From NCBI GenBank assembly GCA_963675755.2, contig CAXXMD010000002.1, forward strand, positions 1,696,001-1,760,000: a DNA stretch of 64,000 nt, written 5' to 3'. The notes beneath the pieces were generated by a model. That model ran no database searches and had not been told where the DNA came from. It saw only the letters and a list, made by a program, of their open reading frames with translations. The DNA comes from a bacterium. GTDB lineage: Bacteria > Zhuqueibacterota > Zhuqueibacteria > Residuimicrobiales > Krinioviventaceae. Shown one piece after another: positions 15,235-30,773 of this stretch; the first letter of the stretch is position 1; the number at the start of each line of letters is the position of its first letter. The position numbers and the translations under genes are program-made.

Positions 15235-15390
15235 AATAATTATCCAATATGTACTTTTTATCACATTAATGTAATATCTTCTTGAATACTGCAAGATAGC
15301 AAACAAAAAAAACAACAAGTTACACTAACTTTCTACAATATAATTATGGCTTATTTTTTGCTAATAAATCTATGATGTATTATTTAAAAA

Positions 15391-16917
15391 TTGCAGGTTA
15401 AAATGAATTCTGAAAAATATTATACAGATCTCTTCAACAATGCTCTGACCGGTATTTATCAAAGCTCAACTGATGGAAAATTTTTGCATGTAAATCCGGC
15501 TATGGCCAGAATTATGGGATATTCTAGTGCCAAAGAATTAATAGAATCCATTGATAATGTTCAGAATATTTATGTTTATAAAGAACAGCGACAAAAGTTA
15601 CTTGCAATAATTGACTCTGAGGGGTATGCAGAAAACTTTATTTCACAGATATATACGCAGGACAATTCAGTCATCTGGATTAGTGAAGAAGCCTGGACTA
15701 TACGTGATGAAAGCGGAACGGTTATTGGTTTCCAGGGAATGGTCAGAAATATCAGTCCCAAACGCAATCTGGATGAAAGAATGGCCAAAAAGCAAAAAGT
15801 TGCCAATCAAAATCAAAAGATGGAAGCCATCAAGACTATGGCCAGAGGTATCTCGCATGATTTTAACAACATTCTGAGTCCCATTGTTGGCTATACTGAA
15901 ATGCTGCTTGAATTCAACACCCATGATGAAAAAACAGAAAGATACCTGCAAAATATTCTCAAATCAGTAAACAAGGCATCAGACCTATCTGCACGAATCC
16001 ATACACTTGCACAACCCGCAAATTTCAAGTCCCAACCGGTTTACCTTGATGAGGTGATGGACGATGTAATGAAAAAACTTACAATTTCAATGCCCCCTAC
16101 TATCAATGTAGATATTGATATTGCGCCAGATATGCATCCGGTACTTATGGATGAAAACAATATGTATTATATTTTAATGAATTTGTGTACAAATGCATAC
16201 ATGGCGATGGCCAATAAAGGTGGTACCCTTACTGTAAAAATCCATCAGGGTGAGTTGGATGGACAATTTATAAGTGAAGAACTGTTAGACCTGGCCCCAG
16301 GTGAATTCATCATTTTACATGTTAATGATTCGGGAGTGGGTATTCCACCGCACGCTTTGGAGCGCATATTCGATCCTTATTATTCTACTCAACAAAAAGG
16401 CAAAGGCCTGGGATTATCACTATCCTATAGCCTGATCAAACAGCATGATGGAGATATCCAAATAAAGAGTAAAGAAAACAGCGGTACCAACATTACCTGT
16501 TATCTTCCAACATTTGATACCATGCTGGACAAAAAAAACAGCGCAAAACCATCAAAACACATATTACTGGTAGATGATGACAAGGACGTGTTGGATATTC
16601 AAAAAAAAATGATTGAAAAACTAGGTTATCAGGTAACTGCTTTTATAGAAAGCCCCCTGGCTTTACAAACATTCAAAGATTCGCCTGAATCCTTTGACCT
16701 GATATTAACCGATATGAACATGCCTCAAATGACCGGACTTGATTTATCAAAATCCATATTGAGCATAGATTCTCAAAAACCGATAATATTATGTACGGGC
16801 TTTAGTGACAGCGTAAACGAATCTCTGGTAAAACGAGCAGGTATTAAAAAGTTTATACTTAAACCGTTAACCACACAAAAACTGGCTAACGATCTTAAAT
16901 CTGTTTTTGAAAGTTAA
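15391..16917 (+). CDS. cytoplasmic hybrid histidine kinase (PAS-HisKA-HATPase-REC)
   Basis: PAS (VNPAMARIMGYSS); ISHDFNNIL; NLCTNA, DSGVG, GKGLGL; REC LVDDD, TDMNMPQMTG, KP; start may be ATG 15403. Confidence 0.9.
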   Translation: MQVKMNSEKYYTDLFNNALTGIYQSSTDGKFLHVNPAMARIMGYSSAKELIESIDNVQNIYVYKEQRQKLLAIIDSEGYAENFISQIYTQDNSVIWISEEAWTIRDESGTVIGFQGMVRNISPKRNLDERMAKKQKVANQNQKMEAIKTMARGISHDFNNILSPIVGYTEMLLEFNTHDEKTERYLQNILKSVNKASDLSARIHTLAQPANFKSQPVYLDEVMDDVMKKLTISMPPTINVDIDIAPDMHPVLMDENNMYYILMNLCTNAYMAMANKGGTLTVKIHQGELDGQFISEELLDLAPGEFIILHVNDSGVGIPPHALERIFDPYYSTQQKGKGLGLSLSYSLIKQHDGDIQIKSKENSGTNITCYLPTFDTMLDKKNSAKPSKHILLVDDDKDVLDIQKKMIEKLGYQVTAFIESPLALQTFKDSPESFDLILTDMNMPQMTGLDLSKSILSIDSQKPIILCTGFSDSVNESLVKRAGIKKFILKPLTTQKLANDLKSVFES

Positions 16918-17108
16918 AAATTAAATCATAAAAACATTCTACCGGTAAATTATTTTTCTTCAAACCCGGAATTTTTCTCTATATTATATAATTATAGATG
17001 ATGTTCAATTACATTTTTGTAAATCAATTATATACAATTATGTGATTCCATTCATTTATTTACCGAACCAACTAAAATAAGTACAATAAAAACAATACCG
17101 GAAAGTGC

Positions 17109-17138
17109 TTGTTTCAGTTTGTAATAACGGTATATAAT
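17109..17138 (+). promoter_or_regulatory. candidate sigma70-type promoter for the polysaccharide operon
   Basis: TTGTTT-N18-TATAAT about 60 nt upstream of ATG 17196; AT-rich context lowers specificity. Confidence 0.35.
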
Positions 17139-17195
17139 TTGCATTATACAGTTGTCTAAAACTAGAGCAAAAATAAAAAAAATCGGTAAAAATTT

Positions 17196-20100
17196 ATGAG
17201 CAGTATGCGTATTCGTCTCCCCTTTTTGTCTTTACTCTTAATCCTTTTGTATCAATCTCTTTTTTCTCAAAACCTTGGCCTTGATCCCGAAGCTAATCAA
17301 ATCAATGCAGTACGTTTTGATCCATCGTATTACTATGATTCAGATCTTGAAATCAAAGAGATGGCTCAGTCCCTGCTTCAAGCCTGGAAATCGAACGGAA
17401 TCAATACTGTATTTTACAAAGTATATGATCCTGCCTATGGTGCTAAATATGTTACTGACTATCAATTTAACATCATGGCGGATTATGGCAAACAGGATCT
17501 TTTATCACACATCATTAATGCAGCCCGTGAAACGGGTGATATGCAAATTATTGCATGGATTCCCGCGTTTCTTCATAAATCTGCCTGGGAGAACAATCCT
17601 GATTGGCGCGTTAAAAATTCAGATGGAAGCGATTACCAGCCCAATCCTGAAGATTATTTTCTCTGCCCGGCAAATGATCAGGTCCGTAGTTGGTGGATGG
17701 GTTTTATTAAAGACATTCTGGACAATTACCCAGATCTGGATGGAGTTGATATTGCAGAACCCATTGTCAAGTGGAATGACCATCGCTGCTATGGTGAGCA
17801 ATGTTCCCGATCTGAGGATCCCCTTTATACTTCAAAAGCACTTACAAAAACCTTGAATGAATCTGTTGAACTGATAAATAGCTATAATAAATTATCCTGC
17901 ATTACATCTGTCGTTACCGCAAACGCTAATGGCAGATTATTAACAATTGCTGAACAACAACTAAAATCCGGATTTTACCTGGATGGTGTATTGGATTATA
18001 AATCCCCGCCAGACTGGATCAACCTTGAATTAATGTGGCAGCAATGGGCGGATTACTATAATGCCCCCAATATTTTTACACCAGAATGGACAACAAATGC
18101 CGCTAAAACGGTTGTCAAATTTGTAGATGACCGTGCAACATTGATCGCACATCTTGAACAAACCTCATTTGGACAGATCAAGGTAGATGCTGAACAGTTG
18201 AACAATGCAATACAGTATAGCAAAGATGCAGGTATAGAACATGTAGATATTTACGATACCCATTTACTGGATGAAATGAACGCATGGTCAGTAATTAAAC
18301 CGTCTTTGGAATATGTGCCAACAAAGAATATTCTGGTATTAACGGATCCTAGTGGAGAAAATGACGCAAAACAAATTGCCAGCCTTCTCAGCCATTTTAA
18401 AACAAATATAGAATTTATCCAATTGGGTAATGATATTCAATTACCTGCTATGGACTCGTTACAAACCATATTTTATATTGGTATTGATGAAAAATTTCAG
18501 ATTCCCAATTCGGTCCTCACTGCATTGAAAAGCTTTGACGGAGATCTGTGCTGGATCAATTACGGAGTTGATCAATATATTAAAAATATTGGACTGGAAA
18601 AGACCGGTTTTTATGTAAATGCTATTCATCATGATTCATTATATCAGACAGTGCCCTTTAAAGGATATGACCTGCCCCGATTTGACCCATCTTATGTAGA
18701 AACAACCATTACTGACAGCAGTAAATGTCGCGTATTGGTTGAAATGCAGGGCAATCAAGGCAGCCTCCCTTATGTTATTAAAAGCAGTAATCTCTGGTAT
18801 TTTGCGGATTTACCGACCGCTTTTGTAACCGAAGGCGGAAGACACATTGTTATCAGTGATATGCTGCATGACATTGTAAGAGAAGACCATAAACCGAAAA
18901 AACTCGCACTGATCCGAATTGAAGATATTCATCCCATTTCAGACATAAAAGCGCTTGAACAAGTAACCGGTTACCTGAAATCTCAGGATGCACCTTATAG
19001 CATTGGTATTGTTCCCTATTACCTGGATCCTGAATCCAATTTAACAGCCACATTGAATGACATGCCGGATTTTGTTGATTTTGTGCACAAATCCATGAAA
19101 TCGGGTGCAACCATAATTATGCATGGATCAACCCATCAGTTCAGAGGTGAAACCACAGCAGATTACGAGTTCTGGGATGGTATGACCGAAGAGGTACTGT
19201 TCTCAGACTCGAAGGAATATGTAAGACAAAAGTTACTGTCAGGCTTGCAGGCATTTAAAGAAAATGGTATATATCCAATCATTTGGGAAACGCCTCATTA
19301 TGCTGCATCACAAATGGATTATGGCGTCATTAATAAGTTTTTCAATACCGCTTATGAACGCAGACAAACAGTAGATAAACATGGTTCGGATCAATTATTG
19401 CCCTATATGATTTATAATCATACTGCGGGCAACAAGATCATTCCAGAAAATTTGGGTTATATCCCTCTTGACGATCCGAATCCCGCACCCATGCTTCAAG
19501 CTGCCGAACATAATCTTGCAATTCGTGACGGAGTAGCCAGTTTCTTTTTCCACACATTTGTTGATCATAATGCTTTAAAAACCATTGTGCCCGGACTGAA
19601 AAAAATGGGTTACACGTTTACGTCTCCCCGCTATACAGCATCCAAGGTTATAGCTCCGGAATACCAGGCGCTAACCGGTGATGGTTCGATAAGCCTTACA
19701 TTAGATGGACAGTATTACCATGAATTTTATATGGACATAAAGGGCAGGAAAAAGAACGAATTTTATTCAGACTCTAGCCTGACTGAAACAATTAATAAAG
19801 ATGTCAAGGTGCCCACCGGCTGGATTTTCATTGCAGAAAAACTGGATGATAAACCCAAAGGACTGTTTGCAAGAGCAGTTAGTACAATAACACCCAATGT
19901 TCCCGAACTTTCTGAAACCATCTTTAACACAAACTCAAAATCATTAATAGATGAAGGTTCTTTTCCAATAAGTGCCGGAATTATTGTTGATTCTACCGCA
20001 ACAGGCCCTGCGGGTATTTCACAAAACAATCTGATCAAATCATTACAGGTAGTTGGCATTGATGTACAAATTTTACCTTTTGAAAACCTGATAGAGATTC

Positions 20101-22166
20101 CTGATGATATCAACATGCTGGTTGTACCCAAGGCAGCAGCAGACAGGTTAACAGAGCAGCAAAATCTTTTCATCTCGTATGCTTTACAAAACGGTCTAAA
20201 TGTCGTTTTTGAAAAGCACTCAAATATTGCCAATAATATTGGCATTATTGAACTCGATCAGGAAATCGTTATCAATAATGTGTATGATGAATATTATCCC
20301 GGTGTAAACATGACCTGGAAAACGCCAGATACCCTGCGTGCGTTTGATGTTGATATTGATTATGTTTCATATTACAGCATTCAAGATTCTGGTGATCCTG
20401 TGGTCATTGGCGGTGAATACGGTGAGGGTAAGTACCTGTTTATGGGTACATTATTTGATCCGATTACTGATTATGGATATGCTCGTTTCCCCTATTTTAT
20501 TGATCTATTGAAAAGACAGTTTAACCTGGTTCCTACAGTTCGCAGAAATACAGTAGAAATCTATTTTGAGCCGGGTGACCGTGAAGATATCAGCATTGAA
20601 GAACTCGTTAAAATGTGGCGCAACTTTGGTGTTCGTCGAATATATGTTTCAACCTGGCATTTTTATGAAGAATATACCTATGATTATGAACGTCTTATAG
20701 AACTTGCTCACCAGAACGCCATGCTGGTTTATGCATGGCTTGAAATTCCGCATGTTAGTCAAAAATTTTGGGATAAACACCCGGAATGGAGAGAAATAAC
20801 TGCAACCGGAGAAGAAGCACATATTGACTGGCGTCGTAATATGGCTGTAGATTTGCCCGAATGCCGGCAAGCCATTTTTGATGAATTACAAAAAGCCCTG
20901 TTGGAATATGACTGGGACGGGATCAATTTTGCTGAACTTTATTATGAATCTCCGGAAGGATTCAAAGCTCCACAAAATATGACTCCCATGAACGATTATG
21001 TTCGTAACATGTACTCGCAAAAATATGGTTACGATCCCAAAAGCTTGTTTGCTACGGCCTCCCCCTATTACTGGAAACGCAATAAACAAGCAGTTGAACA
21101 ATTCCAGCAATTTAGAGAAGACAGGGTCTTTTATCTGCATGGTGAATTTTTAAAATTCATGCACGAGCTTCGTCGTAAAAATGGTCGTGAATGGGAAATT
21201 CTGGTTACAACGCTTGAAAATATTTTCTCGCCGGAAATTGGTAAAGCAACAGCAACAAACACCAAGAGAATTCTACAATGGATAGATGAATACCCCTTTA
21301 CTATTCAAATTGAAGATCCGCAGCCATTATGGGCACTGGGTCCGGAACGTTACACCAAGATTCTGGATGAATACTCGTCTCTTGACTATCATAATAACAT
21401 GATTCTGGATATAAATGTGGTACCCTGGCGCGATACCAATATTACGCTGGCCCCAACAAGACAACCTACAGGACTGGAACTATTTCAACTGGCAAAAGCT
21501 GCGTCTGCAAATAATACACGTGTTGCTGTTTATTCTGAAGCCAGTTTATATGAGGTTGATTTCCCCATGCTCACGTATGTTTTTGCAAATAATGCCCGGG
21601 AAAGTATAAACAATAACGAATGGCTGATTGAAACACCTTATACAGTCAATACCCTGCTTGACAGAGATGCTCATAAAGACATCATGTTGAATGGTGTAAT
21701 CTGGCCGGCTTATTATCAGGGACGTGCAATCATTCCCGCAGGATTACACAAAATTCAACCGATATCACGGTATAACGGATTTATCAAAAAATTCAAATCG
21801 GATGTTCGTCTGGTGGAACTGTCGGGTGAATTGCTTGATGCGCAATCCATTTCACGTGGAATCGAAATCACCTATCGCTCAGACGCACCCAATATTTTAG
21901 TATTATCTGAAAATCCAATTTCTATCATTATTAATGAAGAAGAGTTGAACATCCCCGCTATCAAAGGTGAACTGGGCTATTCATTACGTCTACCCGCCGG
22001 TGAACATACAGTAACCATCTATACACAAACAAATGGTACCCAAACGCTCAAATACACCAGTGTTGTCATTTCAGGTATGATTGTAATACTGGGCATTTTG
22101 GCAGGTTTGTTCTTGTCAACTTTATATCTGCAAAATACAATTCGTCGTAAACGCGCTTCAATTTAA
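17196..22166 (+). CDS. 1656-aa exopolysaccharide-processing fusion: GHL10-like TIM barrel, DUF2334/YdaL-like polysaccharide deacetylase, second GHL10-like barrel, C-terminal TM anchor
   Basis: Signal peptide; GINTVF..IAWIP..NPDW..LCPAN..DGVD; IRIEDIHP, MHGSTHQ, WETPHY, IPENLGY, ASFFFH; VYAWLE..HPEW..DGINF; hydrophobic helix then RRKR. Confidence 0.75.
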   Translation: MSSMRIRLPFLSLLLILLYQSLFSQNLGLDPEANQINAVRFDPSYYYDSDLEIKEMAQSLLQAWKSNGINTVFYKVYDPAYGAKYVTDYQFNIMADYGKQDLLSHIINAARETGDMQIIAWIPAFLHKSAWENNPDWRVKNSDGSDYQPNPEDYFLCPANDQVRSWWMGFIKDILDNYPDLDGVDIAEPIVKWNDHRCYGEQCSRSEDPLYTSKALTKTLNESVELINSYNKLSCITSVVTANANGRLLTIAEQQLKSGFYLDGVLDYKSPPDWINLELMWQQWADYYNAPNIFTPEWTTNAAKTVVKFVDDRATLIAHLEQTSFGQIKVDAEQLNNAIQYSKDAGIEHVDIYDTHLLDEMNAWSVIKPSLEYVPTKNILVLTDPSGENDAKQIASLLSHFKTNIEFIQLGNDIQLPAMDSLQTIFYIGIDEKFQIPNSVLTALKSFDGDLCWINYGVDQYIKNIGLEKTGFYVNAIHHDSLYQTVPFKGYDLPRFDPSYVETTITDSSKCRVLVEMQGNQGSLPYVIKSSNLWYFADLPTAFVTEGGRHIVISDMLHDIVREDHKPKKLALIRIEDIHPISDIKALEQVTGYLKSQDAPYSIGIVPYYLDPESNLTATLNDMPDFVDFVHKSMKSGATIIMHGSTHQFRGETTADYEFWDGMTEEVLFSDSKEYVRQKLLSGLQAFKENGIYPIIWETPHYAASQMDYGVINKFFNTAYERRQTVDKHGSDQLLPYMIYNHTAGNKIIPENLGYIPLDDPNPAPMLQAAEHNLAIRDGVASFFFHTFVDHNALKTIVPGLKKMGYTFTSPRYTASKVIAPEYQALTGDGSISLTLDGQYYHEFYMDIKGRKKNEFYSDSSLTETINKDVKVPTGWIFIAEKLDDKPKGLFARAVSTITPNVPELSETIFNTNSKSLIDEGSFPISAGIIVDSTATGPAGISQNNLIKSLQVVGIDVQILPFENLIEIPDDINMLVVPKAAADRLTEQQNLFISYALQNGLNVVFEKHSNIANNIGIIELDQEIVINNVYDEYYPGVNMTWKTPDTLRAFDVDIDYVSYYSIQDSGDPVVIGGEYGEGKYLFMGTLFDPITDYGYARFPYFIDLLKRQFNLVPTVRRNTVEIYFEPGDREDISIEELVKMWRNFGVRRIYVSTWHFYEEYTYDYERLIELAHQNAMLVYAWLEIPHVSQKFWDKHPEWREITATGEEAHIDWRRNMAVDLPECRQAIFDELQKALLEYDWDGINFAELYYESPEGFKAPQNMTPMNDYVRNMYSQKYGYDPKSLFATASPYYWKRNKQAVEQFQQFREDRVFYLHGEFLKFMHELRRKNGREWEILVTTLENIFSPEIGKATATNTKRILQWIDEYPFTIQIEDPQPLWALGPERYTKILDEYSSLDYHNNMILDINVVPWRDTNITLAPTRQPTGLELFQLAKAASANNTRVAVYSEASLYEVDFPMLTYVFANNARESINNNEWLIETPYTVNTLLDRDAHKDIMLNGVIWPAYYQGRAIIPAGLHKIQPISRYNGFIKKFKSDVRLVELSGELLDAQSISRGIEITYRSDAPNILVLSENPISIIINEEELNIPAIKGELGYSLRLPAGEHTVTIYTQTNGTQTLKYTSVVISGMIVILGILAGLFLSTLYLQNTIRRKRASI

Positions 22167-22182
22167 AACAGCAGGAGTTATT

Positions 22183-23460
22183 TTGCCTTTTTCGCACACA
22201 TCTCTAGATATACTCTTTTTACTGAGTGTTTCCATAACGTGGGCTATGATTCTTTACCAGTTATTTCTAACCATTGCAGGTAACAGATACAGGTTCGATA
22301 TTATGAAAACCGATAAAGAGTTGGAACAAACCCCGGTTAATCCCCAACCGATATCTATCATGATCCCAGCACATAATGAAGAACTGGTTATCGAGAAAAC
22401 CATAGAACGTATCCAAAGTCTGGATTATCCTCCTGAAATGCTTCAAGTGGTAGTAATTAATGACGCATCTCAAGACAACACAGCAGCTCTGGTGGAAGCT
22501 CTGGCTGAAAAGGATAAACGTATCAAACTGGTTACGCTTGAAGGTGACCGGGGACACGGCAAAGCATATGCCCTGAATATTGGGTTAACGCATTGCAGTC
22601 ATGATCTCATTACAATTTACGATGCAGATAATAATCCCTCAAAGGATTCCTTAAAAATTCTTGTTTCTCATCTCAGTCAGGATGATGGACTGGCAGCGGT
22701 TATTGGTAAATTTAGAACCATCAATCGCGCTAAAAACAGTTTGACCCGTTTTATCAATATCGAAACCATGGCCTTTCAATGGATCTTACAGGCCGGGCGT
22801 TACAAAACTTCTCGGATTGCAATTCTGCCGGGGACCAATTATGTTGTTCGTAAATCTGTCATTGAAGAATGCGGCGGCTGGGACCCCAAAGCGATCACTG
22901 AAGATTCCGAAATCAGTGTAAGAATTTACAGATTGGGTTACAAGATCAAATTTGTACCCACCAGTGTTACCTGGGAACAGGAACCCGAAAAAATATCAAC
23001 CTGGATCAGACAACGTACTCGCTGGGTGCGTGGTAATAACTATGTATTGCAAAAATTTGCTCCCGATACATTCAAGTTTAAAAGCCGTTTTCTGTTAATG
23101 GAATTCTTTTATTTATTTGCACTGTACTACCTCTTTCTGGCTGCAATTGTCATTTCACACATGTTGTTCCTCCTGAGCGCTACCGGAGTTGTGGCATTGA
23201 ATGTTCCAGGGCCTTATTTCGGAGTATGGGTTTCTGCATACATCCTGTTTGTTTTGGAAATTGTGGTCGTTTTATCTTATGAACATGAAGATTCAGGCAT
23301 CAATTTATTATACACCCTGTTAATGTATTTTACATATTGTCAATTATGGCTATATGTAGTTTTCAAAGCCCTCTCGCTCGATTTCAGGCGTCACAAGGTT
23401 GGCGAATGGGACAAAACCGAACGATTTGAGGTAAATGTACCGAGCGAGCAGGAAGCCTGA
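22183..23460 (+). CDS. GT2 processive glycosyltransferase, YdaM/PssC-like polysaccharide synthase
   Basis: IPAHNEE, NDAS, GKAYALN, YDADN, RFINIET, PGTN, TED, QRTRW (QxxRW); N-terminal TM plus C-terminal TMs; ends W-KTERF. Confidence 0.88.
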   Translation: MPFSHTSLDILFLLSVSITWAMILYQLFLTIAGNRYRFDIMKTDKELEQTPVNPQPISIMIPAHNEELVIEKTIERIQSLDYPPEMLQVVVINDASQDNTAALVEALAEKDKRIKLVTLEGDRGHGKAYALNIGLTHCSHDLITIYDADNNPSKDSLKILVSHLSQDDGLAAVIGKFRTINRAKNSLTRFINIETMAFQWILQAGRYKTSRIAILPGTNYVVRKSVIEECGGWDPKAITEDSEISVRIYRLGYKIKFVPTSVTWEQEPEKISTWIRQRTRWVRGNNYVLQKFAPDTFKFKSRFLLMEFFYLFALYYLFLAAIVISHMLFLLSATGVVALNVPGPYFGVWVSAYILFVLEIVVVLSYEHEDSGINLLYTLLMYFTYCQLWLYVVFKALSLDFRRHKVGEWDKTERFEVNVPSEQEA

Positions 23461-24305
23461 TGAAATTCTCATTACAAAAAATTGCATTATATAATTGCAT
23501 CCTGGGTCTATTTTTTAGCACATGTGCCTACTCGTTACCGGGTTTGAATCCCAAATTCTTTGCGGAAGCCTATGATGAAACCGTAAATTTTGAACGGGAA
23601 GGTAATAATACCATTACTGCGGGCCATCTCATTCAAGGTGTAAAATTCCCTGAACTGGGGCTTGTTAAATCCGCTGAATTTTATTTTAAACAGCGTTATG
23701 GCAGCGATGCTAACAAAGATTATTGGAACAATCGCGGTGAATTGATCACCGGAACCCGCATTCGTTTTTTTTCCAAAATTTATGTTGCAGTTTTTTATGA
23801 ATATATTCGCGGCTGGTATATGGGTGATAACAATACAAATAATCCCAATCCATATGGCGATACTTATGAAGATATGCGATACGGATTTATTTTCTGGCAG
23901 GGTCTGGATAACGAGTATAAAAAGAAATGGAAAACCAACATCCCCCTCAGTTTTTGGGATGAGATCTATGCAGACGCAGTAAGGTACAAACGGGATGATA
24001 ACAACTTTGCATCATATACCAATATTCGAGCGGGTGAACGTCTGGTAAGAGTTGGTAAAATGGCATTTGATGTTTACGGTGCATTCTATTACGCGTGGGA
24101 TACAAATAAAGATTATTGGAACAATAAATTTGAATATGGACTGGGTTTCAGGCTTAAACCCTGGTCTGATTTGGATCTAAGTTTATTTTACGAAACACTG
24201 GATGGCCAGTATTTAAAACGAAAAGGACGGTATCCTTTACATCATGGTCTCAACTACTCGGACCACCGGTTTGGGATACTCTTTTGGTATGGATTAGGAT
24301 TTTAA
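23460..24305 (+). CDS. putative outer-membrane beta-barrel built from two homologous halves
   Basis: Signal peptide; alternating aromatic strands; C-terminal Phe (GILFWYGLGF); NKDYWNN twice; start overlaps the GT2 stop. Confidence 0.7.
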   Translation: MKFSLQKIALYNCILGLFFSTCAYSLPGLNPKFFAEAYDETVNFEREGNNTITAGHLIQGVKFPELGLVKSAEFYFKQRYGSDANKDYWNNRGELITGTRIRFFSKIYVAVFYEYIRGWYMGDNNTNNPNPYGDTYEDMRYGFIFWQGLDNEYKKKWKTNIPLSFWDEIYADAVRYKRDDNNFASYTNIRAGERLVRVGKMAFDVYGAFYYAWDTNKDYWNNKFEYGLGFRLKPWSDLDLSLFYETLDGQYLKRKGRYPLHHGLNYSDHRFGILFWYGLGF

Positions 24306-24326
24306 CAGCATTTCAAGGAGTTCAAA

Positions 24327-26105
24327 ATGAAAAAAATGCTACTCTTGCTCATTTTATTGATATCAAATCAATTTATATTTGCCCAGGACCAACTCTGGGA
24401 GTTTTCAGCCGATTGGTGGGTTAATTCTATTTATCCCATCAATAGCGTAAATGACAACAGTTTACAGGACGTACTGGTTGCTGCATCTGACAACCGTTTG
24501 TATTGTGTTGAAGGCGGTGGAGATGCCAAAGGAACAATCATCTGGTCCGCTACCTTTACCGGAGATGTCTGGGCAACAGAATCCATACTGGACGTTAACA
24601 ATGACGGTATTGATGATGCCATAGCCGGTGCTGCCGATAATACGGTCTATTGCATATCCGGAGATCCCACTTATGAAGGTGCAGAGATTTGGTCTTATAC
24701 CATCGGCGGTGATGCGTATTGTGTTGACGTAACAAACGATGTCGATTACGATGGAGTTCAGGATTGTGTTGTGGGCAGTAATGATGATTATGTTTACTGT
24801 CTTTCAGGCGCTAATGGCAGCTTAATCTGGAGTTACAAGACTGGAAGTACCGTTTATGATGTTACCCGCGCGGGTGATGTTGATAATGACGGTTATGATG
24901 ATATTTTTGCAGTATCTGTTGATGATAATACTTATTGTCTTTCCGGTAAAATGAATATACCGGGACAACGAGTAATATGGCAAACCACAACGGGCGATGT
25001 CCGCTCGGTCGCCATGATCTCTGATCTGAACAAGGATGGAGAAAATGAATGTCTCGCTGGTGGTGAAAATGATAAAGTAACCTGCCTGTCTGGTACCGAT
25101 GGAACAATTCTCTGGACATTTACTGCTGGTGCATCCATACACAGTATTGCCAGTACTGACGATGCAAATAGTGATGGAAAACCCGATGTATTGGCCGGAT
25201 CTGCAGATAATAAAGTATACATGATTTCGGGACACGATGGCTCTACCATTTGGTATAAACAATACAATGGTGATGTTTGGGATGTTGCGGCTATCCCGGA
25301 TGTGAATAATGACAACGTTCAGGACTGTCTGCTGGGTACGGGTAATAACGATATTGCAGTAATCAGTGGCGCTTCAAGTGGAACGGGAGATGTCATCTGG
25401 TCTGATTCATTCCTGGGTGATGTTTTGACTGTATCGTCATTAAGAGATGTTACCGGCAATGGTATTGTAGAAGTCTTGGGAGGTTCAAACGACAGCCGGG
25501 TTCTTGCATTTGAAGGGAATTCAACAATAACTCCTGTAGAATTGGCAAGCTTTACGGCAATTGTCAACAATAATACTGTAGAGTTGTATTGGGAAACAGC
25601 AACCGAACACAACAATTATGGTTACAAAATACAACGTTCGACGGACAATAAAACCTTTGACACCATTGGTTTTATAAGTGGAAACGGTACCAGCCATAAA
25701 AACGAAGCCTATGAGTATGTTGATGAAAATGTTGGGCCAAACCAGTATTATTACCGATTACTTCAAATAGATTACAATGGTTCAGTCTCAACACTGGATA
25801 CATTACATGTTAATGTAAATGTTCCCGAGACCTTTGCAATACAAAACAATTACCCCAATCCCTTTAATGCAGGAACAGTAATTTCATACTCACTGCCCAA
25901 TCCAGGATATGTGGAAATCAAGATCCATAATATTCGTGGTGAATACATAACAACCCTGTATGAAGGTCAACAACATGCCGGTTACCATAATATTCACTGG
26001 TATGGTAAAAACAACAATGGCATGCTGGTCTCCAGCGGTATATATCTATGCACCATTAAAAATGGAATTCAGAGCCAGACGATCCAAATGTCGTACATAA
26101 AATAA
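24327..26105 (+). CDS. secreted 8-bladed FG-GAP/PQQ-like beta-propeller with Ca-binding loops and FlgD-Ig/T9SS-like C-terminal domain
   Basis: Eight repeats of D-x-[ND]-x-D-G..D....G..D..VYC(L/I)SG..G..IW; PVELASF Ig/FN3 segment; YPNPFN tail. Confidence 0.8.
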   Translation: MKKMLLLLILLISNQFIFAQDQLWEFSADWWVNSIYPINSVNDNSLQDVLVAASDNRLYCVEGGGDAKGTIIWSATFTGDVWATESILDVNNDGIDDAIAGAADNTVYCISGDPTYEGAEIWSYTIGGDAYCVDVTNDVDYDGVQDCVVGSNDDYVYCLSGANGSLIWSYKTGSTVYDVTRAGDVDNDGYDDIFAVSVDDNTYCLSGKMNIPGQRVIWQTTTGDVRSVAMISDLNKDGENECLAGGENDKVTCLSGTDGTILWTFTAGASIHSIASTDDANSDGKPDVLAGSADNKVYMISGHDGSTIWYKQYNGDVWDVAAIPDVNNDNVQDCLLGTGNNDIAVISGASSGTGDVIWSDSFLGDVLTVSSLRDVTGNGIVEVLGGSNDSRVLAFEGNSTITPVELASFTAIVNNNTVELYWETATEHNNYGYKIQRSTDNKTFDTIGFISGNGTSHKNEAYEYVDENVGPNQYYYRLLQIDYNGSVSTLDTLHVNVNVPETFAIQNNYPNPFNAGTVISYSLPNPGYVEIKIHNIRGEYITTLYEGQQHAGYHNIHWYGKNNNGMLVSSGIYLCTIKNGIQSQTIQMSYIK

Positions 26106-26122
26106 ATAAAGGATGTTTTTAT

Positions 26123-27244
26123 ATGAAACCCATTGATGTTATGGTCATTTTTGGTACACGCCCGGAAGCGATCAAAATGGCGCCGGTAATTTTGGAATTG
26201 CAAAAACGATCAACCATCAACACGATTACCGTTTCCACATCACAGCATCGGGAAATGCTGGACCAGGTACTTGACATTTTTGACATAAAACCGGACTTTG
26301 ATTTAAAGATCATGCAGCCGGGACAGACATTGAACCAGATTGTAGAAAGATCAGTTAAAGGATTCAGGGATGTGTTTGAACAAACACGTCCCGATCTTGT
26401 TCTCGTTCAGGGAGATACCACCACAGCATTTACCGGTGCATTGGCTGCCTTTTATGAACGGATCCCGGTTGGGCATATTGAAGCGGGATTACGCAGCGGT
26501 GATATGTATTCTCCTTATCCGGAAGAGGCAAACCGCAGAATGATAAGTGTAATTACTGAATTTCACTTTGCTCCAACCCAGGGCAATCATGAATCTTTGA
26601 TCCAGGAAGGTACAGAACCGGAACGCATACATGTAACCGGAAACACTGTTATTGATGCTTTACACTATGTGTTGCAACACAAACCGGTTCAAGGATTCAC
26701 GGAACAATTTTGCAGCAATGGAGATAAACTGGTTCTGGTTACCGCGCACAGGCGGGAAAACTTTGGTGAACCTATTCGCAATATCTGCAAAGCTTTGATT
26801 GAACTAACTGAAACCCACAAAGACATTCAGATAGTCTATCCGGTACATCTTAACAACAATATTCAAAAACCGGTACATGAATTACTGGACAGTAAAGAAC
26901 GTATCCACTTGCTTGAACCGGTGGATTACAGACATCTTACCACATTGATGAAAGACGCCCATATTGTGCTGACAGATTCTGGTGGTCTACAGGAAGAGGC
27001 TCCCGCACTGGGAAAACCGGTGGTTGTTATGCGTACTGAAACAGAACGCCCCGAAGCGGTAAAAGCCGGAACGGCTGTTTTGGTTGGCATTGAACAGGAA
27101 GCAATTGTGAGTAAAATGACACAGCTTTTAACTGACAATACAGCATATCAGTCCATGGCCAAAGCAGTGAATCCCTATGGCGATGGAAAAGCGGCACATC
27201 GGATTGCGGATATTATTGAAACATCCGGATTAAATAAAAATTAA
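26123..27244 (+). CDS. wecB: non-hydrolysing UDP-N-acetylglucosamine 2-epimerase
   Basis: FGTRPEAIKMAP, QHREML, VQGDTTT, GHIEAGLRS, PEEANR, TAHRREN, TDSGGLQEE, NPYGDG. Confidence 0.95.
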   Translation: MKPIDVMVIFGTRPEAIKMAPVILELQKRSTINTITVSTSQHREMLDQVLDIFDIKPDFDLKIMQPGQTLNQIVERSVKGFRDVFEQTRPDLVLVQGDTTTAFTGALAAFYERIPVGHIEAGLRSGDMYSPYPEEANRRMISVITEFHFAPTQGNHESLIQEGTEPERIHVTGNTVIDALHYVLQHKPVQGFTEQFCSNGDKLVLVTAHRRENFGEPIRNICKALIELTETHKDIQIVYPVHLNNNIQKPVHELLDSKERIHLLEPVDYRHLTTLMKDAHIVLTDSGGLQEEAPALGKPVVVMRTETERPEAVKAGTAVLVGIEQEAIVSKMTQLLTDNTAYQSMAKAVNPYGDGKAAHRIADIIETSGLNKN

Positions 27245-27250
27245 TATCAA

Positions 27251-27769
27251 CTAGTCCTGGTTGATGGTAGATATCCATTTTCCATCTTCCAGGGCAATCT
27301 CGTCAATATTTCGATTAACCCAGGCGTTTTCCACATCAATACGGTTTACATTTACACCATCGATCAAAGTTACAACATATTTGATACCGGCATTTATAAT
27401 CAATCGCTTGCATATCTTGCAGGGTTCAGAGATCGCTAGTGTCTCTCCACTCTCTGAATCAATCCCCAGTAAATAAAGTGTAGAATCCAGCATATCCAGA
27501 CGTGATGCATGAATGATAGCATTTTGTTCCGCATGAACTGAACGGCACCATTCATAATGCTGGCCATGTTTTATATTCATTTCTTTACGGATGCAAACAC
27601 CAATATCCACACAATTTTTAGTATTTCGCGGCGCACCACAGTATCCGGTTGAAATGATCTGATCATTTTTAACAATCACCGCACCATACATCCGGCGTAA
27701 ACAAGTACTTCGTCCTGCTACTTCGCGGGCAATGTTCAGGTAATATTCATCTTTGGAAATTCGTCCCAT
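27251..27769 (-). CDS. dCMP deaminase family (cytidine/deoxycytidylate deaminase, ComEB-like)
   Basis: RSTCLRR, TGYCGAP, VHAEQNA and PCKIC zinc motifs. Confidence 0.9.
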   Translation of the reverse strand: MGRISKDEYYLNIAREVAGRSTCLRRMYGAVIVKNDQIISTGYCGAPRNTKNCVDIGVCIRKEMNIKHGQHYEWCRSVHAEQNAIIHASRLDMLDSTLYLLGIDSESGETLAISEPCKICKRLIINAGIKYVVTLIDGVNVNRIDVENAWVNRNIDEIALEDGKWISTINQD

Positions 27770-27864
27770 GTCACCAACCTCGTATTCAAATGAAAAAACA
27801 AAGTAATGGTTTTAGCATTATAATTCAAGTGCAATTCAAATAAAATATTCAATTTTAATTAAAT

Positions 27865-27890
27865 TGAAACCTTTTTTAGCAGTGATCGTA
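27865..27890 (+). promoter_or_regulatory. ECF sigma (sigmaW-like) promoter
   Basis: TGAAAC-N16-CGTA with a T-tract right after the -35, 36 nt upstream of the trmB-like ATG. Confidence 0.55.
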
Positions 27891-27891
27891 C

Positions 27892-27910
27892 TAGTTCTAT
27901 AAAGCAACTA
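27892..27910. promoter_or_regulatory. candidate operator (inverted repeat) for the TrmB-family regulator
   Basis: TAGTT-N9-AACTA immediately after the -10 element. Confidence 0.4.
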
Positions 27911-27926
27911 ATACACAGGATTATAA

Positions 27927-28772
27927 ATGAAAGAAACTGAAATCGCAAATCTGGTCCAATTCGGGTTAACCAAACTGGAAGCCGAGATCTATTTGGTATT
28001 ACTGCAAAATCCCAATTCCACAGGATATCGAATAGCGCAAATTCTCAACAAGCCGGTTCCAAATACTTATAAAGCATTGAATTCACTGCAGGCAAAACAA
28101 CTCATACTTGCAGATTCAAGCCAAAAAACCCGTATCTATACGGCAGTTCCCATTGCCGAATATCTGGACTATAAGACAATCGAGTTTAATACAAAACGTC
28201 AGGAACTTGAAAAGCAGCTTGAACATTACAAAACGCCAACCGTAGAAGGCGGTATTTATCGGCTAGAAAACATACAGGATATTCTGTCCCGGGCCAGCAC
28301 ACTCATTACCAAAGCACAGGATATTTTGTTGATCGATATTTTTCCAGCCCTGCTTCCCCTATTGCGTGACGAGATTGAAAAAGTAGCGGCATCAGGCACC
28401 AGGGTGATGGTGAAAACGTATGAACCCACAGAAATCAAGAATTGCCTGGTCGTCAATAATAAAACAGATAGTCAGCTGGTTGAAAAATTTTATGGAGAGT
28501 GGCTCAACATTATTGCGGATGGGCGCGAATACCTGTTATCGTTTATCAATCTGAACAAAGAACGTGTTTATGAGGCTTTCTGGAGTAAAAACCTGTTTTT
28601 ATCGCTCATGATGCACAATGGTTTTTCCGATGAATTCATCTTTACCCAAATTCGCAGTATGATTGAAAATGGAACGGATTATAAAGAACTATTGGGTTAT
28701 CTGGACCACTATGATACCATCAAAACCAGCAGTACCCATGCATTCCATGACTTTATGGAACAATTTTCATAA
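27927..28772 (+). CDS. TrmB family transcriptional regulator
   Basis: LVQFGLTKLEAEIYLVLL...TGYRIA...NTYKALNSL wHTH, followed by an effector-binding domain. Confidence 0.88.
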   Translation: MKETEIANLVQFGLTKLEAEIYLVLLQNPNSTGYRIAQILNKPVPNTYKALNSLQAKQLILADSSQKTRIYTAVPIAEYLDYKTIEFNTKRQELEKQLEHYKTPTVEGGIYRLENIQDILSRASTLITKAQDILLIDIFPALLPLLRDEIEKVAASGTRVMVKTYEPTEIKNCLVVNNKTDSQLVEKFYGEWLNIIADGREYLLSFINLNKERVYEAFWSKNLFLSLMMHNGFSDEFIFTQIRSMIENGTDYKELLGYLDHYDTIKTSSTHAFHDFMEQFS

Positions 28773-28796
28773 CCATTATCATTTGAGGAGGACACT

Positions 28797-30644
28797 TTGA
28801 AATTCAATTTAATCATTACATCTCTGATATTGTTTGTCATATCCCAAACCGGTATATCAAACCCAATGACCGATCCATTGCAGATTTTACAAAAACATTA
28901 CGAGGCTACCGGTGGATTGGAAAAGCATAAACAGGAAAAAACAACTTTTATGGAAGCCAAGCTATCTCTTGCAGGACTGGAAGGCACTGTGAAGCAATGG
29001 AACGAGATTCCCGGAAAAAGCAGACAGGAACTCGATCTTCAAATTTTGAAACAGGTTGAAGGAGATGACGGGAATACAAGTTGGATTGTGGATTCGAATG
29101 GCAAACTAAAAATTAATCGTGATAAAGCCACTTTGGAAAAGCGGGAAATATCACAGGCTATGGAACAAATGGAATTTATGGATCCCAATACTGAAATGTT
29201 TACACTGAAATTTGGAGGTATTGAACCGGTTGGAGGAACCGATTGCTATAAAATCACTATTTCAAATTCAATCAATAAAAATCTCAAAGTACGATACTAT
29301 AGCACAATAGACTTTTACGAGCTCAAATCCTGTGATTTTGAAAACAACTATGAAACCCAAACTCTATATTCAGATTTTAGAACTGTAAATGGATTAATCA
29401 AACCCTTTTTATACAATATCACAGAAGTGAATACTGGGCAAGAACAAAAAATAGAGGTAATGAACTGGGAATCCAATATGGAAATTGATCAATCCTTATT
29501 TCAGATCCCGGATCAAGATGTCAAAGACTTTGAATTCATCAAAGGCAACAGTTCAGAAAACATTCCTTTTAAATATATATACAATCATGTCTTTTTATAT
29601 GTAACCATTGATAATGATGTACAATTATGGGTTCTTGATAACGGCGCGGACGTGACCTGTATCAACCGCCAATACGCGGAAAGAATGGGTTGGGAGATCA
29701 GCGGAAATCTCAAGGGAGAAGGTGTAAACAATACCGTTGAATTTGGATTTTTAGAGATTCCTGAATACAGCATAAAAGGTATTCGATTAAAAAGTCAGAC
29801 AGTAGCAGCATTGGATTTTACGTTTATCGAAAAAGGTTTGGGAATCAAGCTGGCAGGAATTCTGGGCTATGATTTTCTCTCACGATTTGTTACCAAAATT
29901 GATTATGCCAACGAAACCCTATCGTTTTACGATCCCGATGCCTTTGAATATGCCGGAGACGGCAGCCAATTAGACGCACCTCTTTCCGGTAAAATGTTTA
30001 GCTTCCCTGCCACTGTTGATGGTAAATACACTGGCATATGGGGAGTTGATATTGGTTCAGGTTCTCTCTCCTTTCACTATCCCTTTGCCAGCGAGAACAA
30101 TCTGCTTGGTAAGGATGGCGTATTGTATATGGGCGGTGGTGCCGGTGGTGAAATGCAGGAAAAGCGTTCTAAATTTAAAACCCTCTCTTTTGCCGGTTTT
30201 ACCATCGATAATCCCTACATAGATCTGCCAACGGATTCATCAACAGGTGCATATGCCAACGATCGATTAATTGGCGAAATGGGTAATCCCTTATTTAGCA
30301 ACTTTATCTTTTATATGGATTATAAAAACCAGAGATTAATCTTTGAAAAAGGAGAAAATTTCAACAAACCGAAACCGGTTGATAAAAGCGGTATTCAACT
30401 CTATTACAATGATAACGATCAACTCTATATTCATTATCTTTCACCAAACTGTCCTGGTGAAAAAGCAGGATTTAAAAAAGGAGATATACTTCTCACAATT
30501 AATGATATAGGCATAGAGAGTTTTAACAAACTGGAAGCCATTCAAAAATTGTTTAAAAAACAGAGCGGTACAAAATATAAAATTAAAGTTCAGCGGGGGG
30601 ATAAAGAAAAAACGATAAAGCTCGAATTAAAGGATCTGTATTAA
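28797..30644 (+). CDS. secreted aspartyl protease (two retropepsin-like domains) with N-terminal LolA-like region and C-terminal PDZ
   Basis: Signal peptide; LDNGA and VDIGS Asp motifs; GILGYDFL; PDZ (PGEKAGFKKGDILLTIN); TTG start with GAGGAGG SD. Confidence 0.8.
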   Translation: MKFNLIITSLILFVISQTGISNPMTDPLQILQKHYEATGGLEKHKQEKTTFMEAKLSLAGLEGTVKQWNEIPGKSRQELDLQILKQVEGDDGNTSWIVDSNGKLKINRDKATLEKREISQAMEQMEFMDPNTEMFTLKFGGIEPVGGTDCYKITISNSINKNLKVRYYSTIDFYELKSCDFENNYETQTLYSDFRTVNGLIKPFLYNITEVNTGQEQKIEVMNWESNMEIDQSLFQIPDQDVKDFEFIKGNSSENIPFKYIYNHVFLYVTIDNDVQLWVLDNGADVTCINRQYAERMGWEISGNLKGEGVNNTVEFGFLEIPEYSIKGIRLKSQTVAALDFTFIEKGLGIKLAGILGYDFLSRFVTKIDYANETLSFYDPDAFEYAGDGSQLDAPLSGKMFSFPATVDGKYTGIWGVDIGSGSLSFHYPFASENNLLGKDGVLYMGGGAGGEMQEKRSKFKTLSFAGFTIDNPYIDLPTDSSTGAYANDRLIGEMGNPLFSNFIFYMDYKNQRLIFEKGENFNKPKPVDKSGIQLYYNDNDQLYIHYLSPNCPGEKAGFKKGDILLTINDIGIESFNKLEAIQKLFKKQSGTKYKIKVQRGDKEKTIKLELKDLY

Positions 30645-30647
30645 TCC

Positions 30648-30683
30648 AAAAGGCTGCACAATATTTTTTGTGCAGCCTTTTTT
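30648..30683 (+). terminator. rho-independent terminator
   Basis: AAAAGGCTGCACAA / TTGTGCAGCCTTTTTT directly after the stop. Confidence 0.88.
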
Positions 30684-30773
30684 CACATACAAAAAAAAGT
30701 AAAAAAAGCTTTTCCAAATTCAATTAATTGTTGTATAGTATTAAGATAAGGGAAGTCATAATTTGGGGCTTGT

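Follow-up and report, generated by a model that had tools for sequence, protein, structure and literature searches.

Synthase-dependent secretion of polysaccharides is known from a few proteobacterial and firmicute systems: those for cellulose, poly-N-acetylglucosamine (PNAG), alginate and Pel and, lately, the Nfr and phage glycan receptor (PGR) systems. Processive membrane synthases of glycosyltransferase family 2 (GT2) are defined by a GT-A fold with D, DxD, TED and Q(Q/R)xRW motifs and by flanking transmembrane helices, and in the Pss, Yda, PGR and cellulose systems the synthase has BcsB as its partner. The outer-membrane pores of the PNAG, cellulose and alginate systems have 16-18 strands, and to our knowledge all diderm forms of these systems carry a tetratricopeptide repeat (TPR) scaffold joined to or beside a large barrel. 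Here we describe a five-gene operon in a 64,000-nucleotide stretch of DNA (the window; positions 1,696,001 to 1,760,000 of contig CAXXMD010000002.1, assembly GCA_963675755.2) from an uncultured bacterium of the Krinioviventaceae; the operon most likely serves to make and trim a sugar polymer and to carry it through both membranes to the surface. We read it as a synthase-dependent exopolysaccharide secretion system of the PssC/PgrC lineage built across two membranes, and put the probability of this pathway reading as a whole at about 0.68.

The PGR locus pgrA-G of Acinetobacter baumannii (CP040041.1), published in 2025, encodes a GGDEF-like PgrA, the GT2 PgrC, a BcsB homologue, PgrE, which resembles the C-terminal domain of PgaB, WecB (PgrF) and a predicted porin, PgrG (PMC12507263; here and below, the available sections of the sources cited). 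Mutations in its BcsB and wecB homologues block phage StAb3, and its authors propose a polymer containing N-acetylmannosamine (ManNAc) (PMC12507263). The available sections of that paper link its GT2 to NfrB, BcsA and PgaC and do not mention Pss. In Listeria, a membrane protein, a DUF2334 protein, a GT2, a BcsB-like protein and a GGDEF-like protein follow one another as pssA-E (PMC4125290), and the product of the operon has a beta-1,4-ManNAc backbone (PMC13492145, PMC6307706); a further source covers pssA-E and ydaJKLMN of Bacillus subtilis (PMC13274460). The E. coli NfrB/NfrA/YbcH system is diderm, synthase-dependent and tied to WecB and ManNAc, and has an outer-membrane component (RefSeq annotation; PMC8669469, PMC8669472).

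The operon of the window comprises a giant exported processing protein (open reading frame 1, ORF1), a GT2 (ORF2), an outer-membrane barrel (ORF3), an FG-GAP propeller (ORF4) and WecB (ORF5), assigned by Pfam and NCBIfam scans and separated in order by 16, -1 (a one-base overlap), 21 and 17 nt (Table 1, from the ORF listing). An original prediction from the letters of this stretch had named five co-oriented, tightly packed genes of these types, and the ORF coordinates and family scans agree with it; its list of parts made no mention of the second glycoside hydrolase (GH)-like domain and the C-terminal membrane anchor of ORF1. With PGR the operon shares the diderm setting, a GT2 37% identical to its own, a WecB in the locus and an outer-membrane protein with a homologous barrel (hhalign 95.4%), and the GH-like content of ORF1 recalls PgrE, a DUF4434 protein, although hhalign detects no similarity of the ORF1 family to PgrE or to the PGR BcsB homologue. 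PGR alone possesses a homologue of BcsB, a PgrA of degenerate GGDEF-like type, a porin with a TPR segment and separate small accessory proteins; the window operon has none of the first three, and has instead a 1656-aa fusion with DUF2334 and a conserved FG-GAP propeller.

Listeria Pss resembles the operon in its GT2 (PssC, 43% identical) and perhaps also in the gene just upstream of it, which codes for an extracytoplasmic partner of DUF2334 type that has a hydrophobic segment at its C-terminus. Pss and Yda are monoderm systems without outer-membrane parts, and their own BcsB-like subunit (PssD/YdaN) and cyclic di-GMP (c-di-GMP) receptor (PssE/YdaK) are both missing here, while the Listeria operon, unlike this one, has no WecB. 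E. coli pgaABCD likewise combines a processive GT2, a periplasmic protein with deacetylase and GH-like barrel parts, and an outer-membrane barrel. Here, in contrast to Pga, the GT2 shares only 25% identity with PgaC, the deacetylase-like part belongs to DUF2334, the domains stand in the reverse order, PgaD is lacking, and the 281-aa barrel of 12 predicted strands is without the TPR and large barrel of PgaA. PgaB is an outer-membrane lipoprotein, whereas ORF1 is anchored by a C-terminal helix. The Nfr system differs in the lineage of its GT2 and in its outer-membrane protein.

A diderm version of the PssC-like synthase lineage with WecB and a porin is already known. The original prediction had placed such systems in monoderms and held this arrangement to be undescribed, which the PGR locus, with its PssC-like GT2, WecB and related porin, contradicts (PMC12507263). 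The novelty lies in the partners that are conserved over several uncultured diderm phyla: in place of BcsB, TPR and separate enzymes there is one giant, anchored GH/deacetylase/GH protein, joined by a TPR-less PgrG-type barrel and an FG-GAP propeller, and a c-di-GMP receptor is absent. The literature searched gave no account of the fusion-GT2-barrel-propeller arrangement, with S5 Table and S6 Fig of PMC12507263 outside that search; among papers on KSB1 exopolysaccharides none was relevant by title, and nothing was found that names YdaM with PssC.

The gene order recurs far beyond chance. ORF1, GT2, barrel and propeller follow one another on the same strand in 11 of 11 fetched loci of relatives, with WecB on that strand after the propeller in 4, convergent in 3 and outside the fetched flank in 4; the barrel protein is present in 15 of the 41 genomes searched, the window's own counted. 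A cross-phylum scan, with one genome per species and two peptide patterns for the ORF1 family, found at least 44 loci, all from metagenome-assembled genomes (MAGs) and labelled KSB1, Fibrobacterota, Sumerlaeota, Desulfobacteraceae/Deltaproteobacteria, Planctomycetota, Kapaibacterium, Gemmatimonadota and unnamed bacteria; since only two patterns were used, this is a lower bound. The ORF1 match reaches residue 1400 or beyond in 33 of these loci, and the GT2 lies directly downstream of ORF1 in all 32 with room for it. Among the 26 loci with at least 2.8 kb downstream, barrel and propeller are each present in 25 and WecB in 18 (16 on the same strand). These loci overlap in part with the 11 of relatives and kin are not independent, yet the spread over differently labelled phyla is still clear, so that the synteny search proposed with the original prediction shows the genes co-conserved well beyond KSB1. 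The exception for barrel and propeller is a Kapaibacterium MAG locus (L064, 9001-15045), where the ORF1 homologue begins only at residue 374, without the first GH-like domain, the GT2 lies about 950 nt downstream, and the 6.8 kb beyond hold no barrel, propeller or WecB.

The synthase ties the operon to its described relatives. ORF2 is 43% identical to Listeria monocytogenes PssC over 414 residues (full length, E 2e-122), and the motifs quoted in the original prediction are present and align one to one between the two, as FINIET..FQW..QAGR, PGTN, TWEQEP, QR(T/S)RW, LMY.TYCQLW and W.KTERF. PDB sequence matches of ORF2 to BcsA span residues 51-337. It is 42% identical to an E. faecalis homologue, 37% to the A. 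baumannii PGR GT2 and 36-38% to Priestia and B. thuringiensis plasmid GT2s, against 25% to E. coli PgaC (102 bits), 24% to BcsA (84 bits) and a match of 28 bits (E 0.012) to NfrB. By these pairwise scores, used in place of a tree and with Listeria PssC as the Pss/Yda reference, ORF2 falls beside PssC and PgrC and apart from PgaC, BcsA and NfrB; its likeness to PssC had been predicted. The PGR GT2 is itself 39% identical to Listeria PssC, and the systems PGR and Pss appear to be one family. Family models agree: ORF2 falls in Pfam GT2 families, its best NCBIfam match, PgaC_IcaA (TIGR03937), scores 163.4 bits, far under the equivalog cut-off of 422.3, and the Nfr models NF012033 and NF011305 score about 33 bits against cut-offs of 409-537. 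D94, D147-x-D149, T239-E240-D241 and Q277-R-T-R-W281 are invariant in 12 of 12 GT2 orthologues, so the signatures of a processive synthase of the BcsA/PgaC/PssC type are present. The ORF2 gene is single-copy in the genome. Several PLSDB "plasmid" records met in these comparisons, of 2.9-5.5 Mb (NZ_CP030101.1, NZ_CP104448.1, NZ_CP093325.1 and others), are evidently chromosomes.

ORF1 is the most distinctive part of the operon. All 25 orthologues taken from other loci are likewise single uninterrupted frames, of about 1620-1800 aa, so the fusion is old and no local accident. The protein begins with a signal peptide. The first GH-like (beta/alpha)8 barrel is matched by GHL10 and GHL6 at residues 53-186 (GHL10 at 38.6 bits, GHL6 and GHL13 more weakly). 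Its AlphaFold2 (AF2) model (predicted local distance difference test, pLDDT, 92.8) has Cwp19 (template modelling score, TM, 0.71) and the C-terminal domain of E. coli PgaB (TM 0.69-0.72, E 8e-13) as top Foldseek matches, the two spanning E 1e-14 to 8e-13. By sequence, hhalign of the ORF1 family against PgaB is weak (E 0.025); the later fold search backs the link. D42, D78, H127, D185, E188, E278 and E321 of this domain are invariant in 26 of 26 ORF1 sequences. A relative of this domain alone, 31% identical over residues 36-368, occurs in an archaeal record, a Pacearchaeota MAG (L087, 9001-10041), with nothing else of the system.

The DUF2334 part is the most conserved of ORF1, with 21.7% invariant positions against 3.5-11.6% elsewhere in the 26 sequences. 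D577, H643 and H647 (H-x3-H) are invariant in all 26, as are E576, D656, E698, H701, D778 and H786; the first three fit what we take to be the Asp-His-His metal triad of deacetylases of carbohydrate esterase family 4 (CE4), and by these motifs the domain would be deacetylase-like. No paper on DUF2334 in the literature searched deals with polysaccharides, judged by title and abstract. The second GH-like barrel has its GHL10-like stretch near residues 1165-1300, and its candidate acids vary (E1247 in 18 of 26, E1373 in 19 and E1428 in 22), so it may only bind and is possibly non-catalytic. A hydrophobic C-terminal helix with a basic tail closes the protein in 26 of 26 sequences. Otherwise ORF1 is poor in relatives: it matches no PDB sequence at E up to 0.1 and no NCBIfam family, the sole PDB match of the family profile is Cwp19 (E 0.0039), and for residues 800-1125 a domain atlas gives at best 0.83 (DUF2194, LBP_M and GH42M-like), under the level counted as more than a lead.

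What holds ORF1 at the synthase? Pfam finds no BcsB family match in the operon or in the whole 6.48-Mb, 98% complete genome; in the B. subtilis control genome DUF2334 and BcsB family matches are both present. A complex of the GT2 with ORF1 residues 1440-1656, part of a check proposed with the original prediction, is predicted to dock with an ipSAE (interaction prediction score from aligned errors) of 0.75 (runs 0.71, 0.75 and 0.75), the best of three controls giving 0.00; of 157 solved complexes 116 attain this mark, and of 215 mismatched pairs only 2. Contacts agree between the runs to at least 90%, partner pLDDT is at least 72, and on the ORF1 side the predicted interface comprises the helix 1611-1651 together with residues 1530-1533, which pack on residues 6-34 and 340-370 of the GT2. 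The pass may be partly due to likeness to solved BcsA-BcsB complexes. The model supports ORF1-GT2 binding, and ORF1 may take BcsB's place beside the synthase.

The predicted outer-membrane nature of ORF3 is borne out by its AF2 model, a signal helix and 12 strands (pLDDT 83.2, predicted TM-score 0.73), and the Foldseek and VIA matches listed are outer-membrane barrels throughout. They spread over many kinds of such barrels, and the fold is therefore generic. ORF3 has no NCBIfam family and no TPR, and a Pfam scan of the whole 29-member barrel family (E up to 1) gives no meaningful family, neither NfrA_C nor Gcw_chp/TorF being matched; one barrel relative has a sub-threshold NfrA_C match (22.6 bits against 25). 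The barrel is internally duplicated, with DANxDYWNN(R/K) spanning residues 83-92 and recurring at 214-222, RxGxxFWxG spanning 140-148 and recurring at 270-278, and these motifs are invariant or nearly so in the 29-sequence alignment. Among 1.84 billion representatives, a search with the barrel profile brought up 369 relatives; in many of them the barrel makes up the C-terminal part of a longer protein of 400-1400 aa, and 10 of 16 distant relatives scanned have N-terminal TPR repeats. TPR repeats in front of a barrel are the build of known exopolysaccharide porins. At the PgrG position of A. baumannii stands a 390-aa TPR-barrel protein, to which ORF3 aligns through its C-terminal half (hhalign 95.4%, E 1.7e-8, 109 columns). 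The same barrel family thus accompanies a PssC-like GT2 and WecB in Gammaproteobacteria too, which is independent support for a role in the same pathway, and we presume ORF3 to be the exit pore for the polymer. A 605-aa database representative (P0152) joins a GT2 C-terminal part and a barrel in one predicted protein, perhaps by read-through of an overlapping stop/start or as a real fusion. An apparent GT2-barrel fusion in another locus (L059), a long open frame over both, was rejected, the two lying in different frames.

Could the barrel be something other than the pore? It might instead anchor or dock ORF1 or the propeller at the outer membrane, and the polymer would then exit otherwise or stay periplasmic. 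Its 12 strands are fewer than those of the PNAG, cellulose and alginate pores, it has no Pfam family, and its nearest folds are autotransporter and small-porin barrels. Its position and co-conservation argue against this alternative, as do its homology to a protein predicted as the PGR porin (PMC12507263), the TPR-plus-barrel build of distant relatives and the presence of KdgM/NanC-type 12-strand barrels among the fold matches; we rate an anchor role as distinctly unlikely. KdgM/NanC-type barrels pass oligosaccharides.

ORF4 combines FG-GAP/PQQ-type propeller families, seven DxDxDG-like repeats and an Ig-like (immunoglobulin-like) domain with a sorting tail above the TIGR04183 cut-off, as in type A cargo of the type IX secretion system (T9SS). 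The genome is rich in such tails, with at least 150 matches (150 scored of 291 candidates), an unusually large predicted cargo set, which marks the host as a diderm relying heavily on T9SS. The propeller part is conserved in 25 of 26 loci, and the Ig-like domain and T9SS tail in some lineages only, the orthologues of Desulfobacterota, Sumerlaeota and Fibrobacteria having other C-termini. Dockerin repeats considered at the ends of Desulfobacterota propellers had no Pfam support at E up to 0.01 and were rejected. A signal-like hydrophobic stretch is found in most of 13 orthologue N-termini; together with the conservation of the propeller it points to an exported core component. Its most economical role would be to bind or organise the polymer on the cell surface, and the name "matrix protein" given to it in the original prediction goes no further than that inference.

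ORF5 is wecB, as predicted, and a true equivalog: TIGR00236 covers residues 5-366 of 373 at 499.5 bits against a cut-off of 210.15. The genome has three full WecB copies, so the copy in the operon is an extra one. The product is probably a partly de-N-acetylated ManNAc polymer, in agreement with the sugar named in the original prediction.

These parts suggest a route for the chain. WecB would convert UDP-N-acetylglucosamine (UDP-GlcNAc) to UDP-ManNAc, which the GT2 would polymerise at the inner membrane while threading the chain through its own channel. ORF1, held beside the synthase by its C-terminal helix in BcsB's place, would receive the chain in the periplasm; there its DUF2334 domain would remove some N-acetyl groups, and its PgaB-like GH domain would bind or trim the chain. 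ORF1 would reach toward the 12-strand barrel, through which the polymer would leave without a TPR scaffold. The FG-GAP propeller, exported here by T9SS, would probably hold or organise the polymer on the surface. Of this picture, the identities of the domains, the homologies, the synteny and the conserved residues of catalytic type are seen in the sequences; the sugar, its deacetylation, the passage through the barrel and the part played by the propeller are interpretation. A bolder version, tentative and to our minds somewhat doubtful, is that this is a further architecture, widespread in uncultured diderm phyla: an inner-membrane-anchored protein of about 1650 aa would dock by its C-terminal helix, span the periplasm as a chaperone/deacetylase/hydrolase "conveyor" and feed a minimal 12-strand pore, replacing the BcsB and TPR scaffold of all described systems, while a separately exported calcium-binding FG-GAP propeller would capture a cationic polymer of mannosamine and ManNAc (poly-ManN/ManNAc).

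Several findings weigh against reading the operon as a secretion system of the PssC/PgrC lineage. A GT2 phylogeny had been proposed for placing the synthase, and the base of the 31-row tree (7 rows from the 120 matches listed, 15 from loci found in relatives or in other phyla, and 9 reference sequences, the window GT2 among them) is unresolved, with 12 of 28 inner branches open and very long PgaC, BcsA and NfrB branches. The pairwise scores favour PssC, and because the tree leaves the deep order unresolved, no more is claimed than the placement with PssC and PgrC rather than PgaC, BcsA and NfrB. The match of the deacetylase to PssB is looser than the original prediction had it: DUF2334 is strong in ORF1, and the likeness to Listeria PssB is distant, BLASTP being not significant, hhalign giving 77% (E 2e-5) and PssB scoring 23.3 bits on DUF2334, below the cut-off; in that alignment, itself only 77% probable, PssB has no equivalents of D577, H643 and H647. 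ORF1 also shows no significant similarity to PssD (BLASTP) or to the A. baumannii BcsB homologue (hhalign), and for lack of any detectable likeness to BcsB-type proteins the idea that ORF1 replaces BcsB rests on topology and one complex prediction. No GGDEF, PilZ or MshEN part is found by Pfam in the operon, GGDEF and PilZ being absent from the five genes and six neighbours scanned. The fold of ORF3 is no nearer to PgaA (4y25, Z 8.8) and BcsC (Z 9.0-9.3) than to BrkA (Z 12.3), PcoB (Z 11.7) and KdgM/NanC (Z 9.4-9.5), that is, Z 8.8-9.3 against 9.4-12.3 for autotransporter and KdgM-type barrels, and its profile against E. coli NfrA is not significant (hhalign probability 0.65%).

A further such point is that Cwp19, a cell-wall protein of C. 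difficile, ties with PgaB as the best structural match of the first GH-like domain. Were ORF1 a peptidoglycan remodelling enzyme, the cluster would build or edit a wall-associated glycan instead of exporting a free exopolysaccharide, with barrel and propeller as unrelated neighbours; that Cwp19 is also the only PDB match of the sequence profile, and that GHL10 and DUF2334 are poorly characterised families, would suit this. The C-terminal domain of PgaB, however, matches the domain equally well, 25 of 26 loci across phyla retain the order fusion-GT2-barrel-propeller, ORF2 with its QRTRW is a processive membrane synthase, and the barrel family is joined to a PssC-like GT2 and WecB in A. baumannii, which together make a wall-remodelling role very improbable.

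The sugar is the point on which the secretion-system reading is most exposed to a rival. Its putative assignment draws on 37-43% GT2 identity and on linkage to WecB, and WecB lies outside the fetched locus in 8 of 26; four genomes with WecB-less loci have 2-5 WecB copies each, in two of them with one copy 8-11 kb off on the same contig. The same machinery might instead make a GlcNAc-type or other N-acetylhexosamine polymer, PNAG-like or mixed, with WecB feeding another pathway or a minor component. The best NCBIfam match of the GT2 is PgaC_IcaA, ORF1 pairs a deacetylase-like with a PgaB-C-terminal-like domain as PgaB does, and besides the loci that lack WecB the window's genome has two more copies of it. 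Against this, the PgaC_IcaA match falls far short of its cut-off (163 bits, where 422 are required), identity is 25% to PgaC and 43% to PssC, WecB stands on the same strand within the cluster in 16 of 26 loci across phyla, and the nearest studied homologues are tied to ManNAc. We consider another sugar unlikely, and yet the most serious of the three rivals.

For the secretion-system reading, the consequences reach beyond one genome. The PssC/PgrC lineage is found in at least 5 uncultured diderm groups that carry different labels, and its partner set there is fixed and unlike that of the described systems. If the reading is right, the operon offers a compact five-gene route to a probably cationic ManNAc-type polymer and a case in which to study the passage of a chain through the periplasm where both TPR and BcsB are missing. 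It would then also assign a role to DUF2334 in diderms and to the PgrG-type barrel, two families so far unstudied. The operon further ties into one family the Listeria Pss and Acinetobacter PGR glycans, both of which matter for biofilm persistence or phage adsorption.

Table 1. Features of the operon (positions in the window).
Feature	Position	Strand	Description or basis
Upstream intergenic region, presumed promoter region	16918..17195	+	278 nt; from ORF coordinates
ORF1	17196..22166	+	1656 aa; exported multi-domain polysaccharide-processing protein with C-terminal membrane anchor
GH-like (beta/alpha)8 barrel 1 of ORF1, PgaB-C-terminal/Cwp19-like (residues 26-378)	17271..18329	+	Pfam, AF2, Foldseek
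DUF2334 deacetylase-like domain of ORF1 (residues 571-798)	18906..19589	+	Pfam PF10096, 153.8 bits against a cut-off of 26
Second GH-like barrel of ORF1, GHL10-like (residues ~1111-1440)	20526..21515	+	Pfam GHL10, E 2.4e-5, 24 bits, below cut-off
C-terminal transmembrane helix of ORF1 (residues ~1621-1648), then RRKR	22056..22139	+	sequence
ORF2	22183..23460	+	425 aa, TTG start; PssC/PgrC-type processive GT2 (putative synthase and inner-membrane channel)
ORF3	23460..24305	+	281 aa; predicted 12-strand outer-membrane beta-barrel without TPR domain, PgrG-related; presumed exit pore
ORF4	24327..26105	+	592 aa; signal peptide, seven-repeat FG-GAP beta-propeller, Ig-like domain, T9SS C-terminal sorting domain
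T9SS C-terminal sorting domain of ORF4 (residues 509-586)	25851-26084	+	TIGR04183, 29.4 bits against a cut-off of 23
ORF5	26123..27244	+	373 aa; WecB, non-hydrolysing UDP-GlcNAc 2-epimerase (UDP-ManNAc supply)

Upstream of the operon, sigma-70-type sites are not above background (44 against 38.2 +/- 6.4 in shuffled sequence), and a terminator scan at the operon likewise does no better than shuffled background. Directly upstream, at 13480-16917, lie genes for a histidine kinase of Cache type and for a hybrid kinase that has PAS and receiver domains; these two sensor kinases adjoin the operon only in the same-genus genome, and some more distant loci have kinase-like genes upstream on the opposite strand. 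A convergent cytidine/dCMP deaminase-family gene begins 6 nt past the operon end, and the downstream region (27251-32336) also encodes a TrmB-family regulator, a protein with aspartyl-protease and PDZ parts and a PMT_2 (ArnT-like) glycosyltransferase; the synteny of these neighbours extends to the same-genus genome only. Elsewhere in the genome, five GT2 paralogues stand within 10 kb (contig C3, ~1996908-2006451), probably a separate polysaccharide locus.

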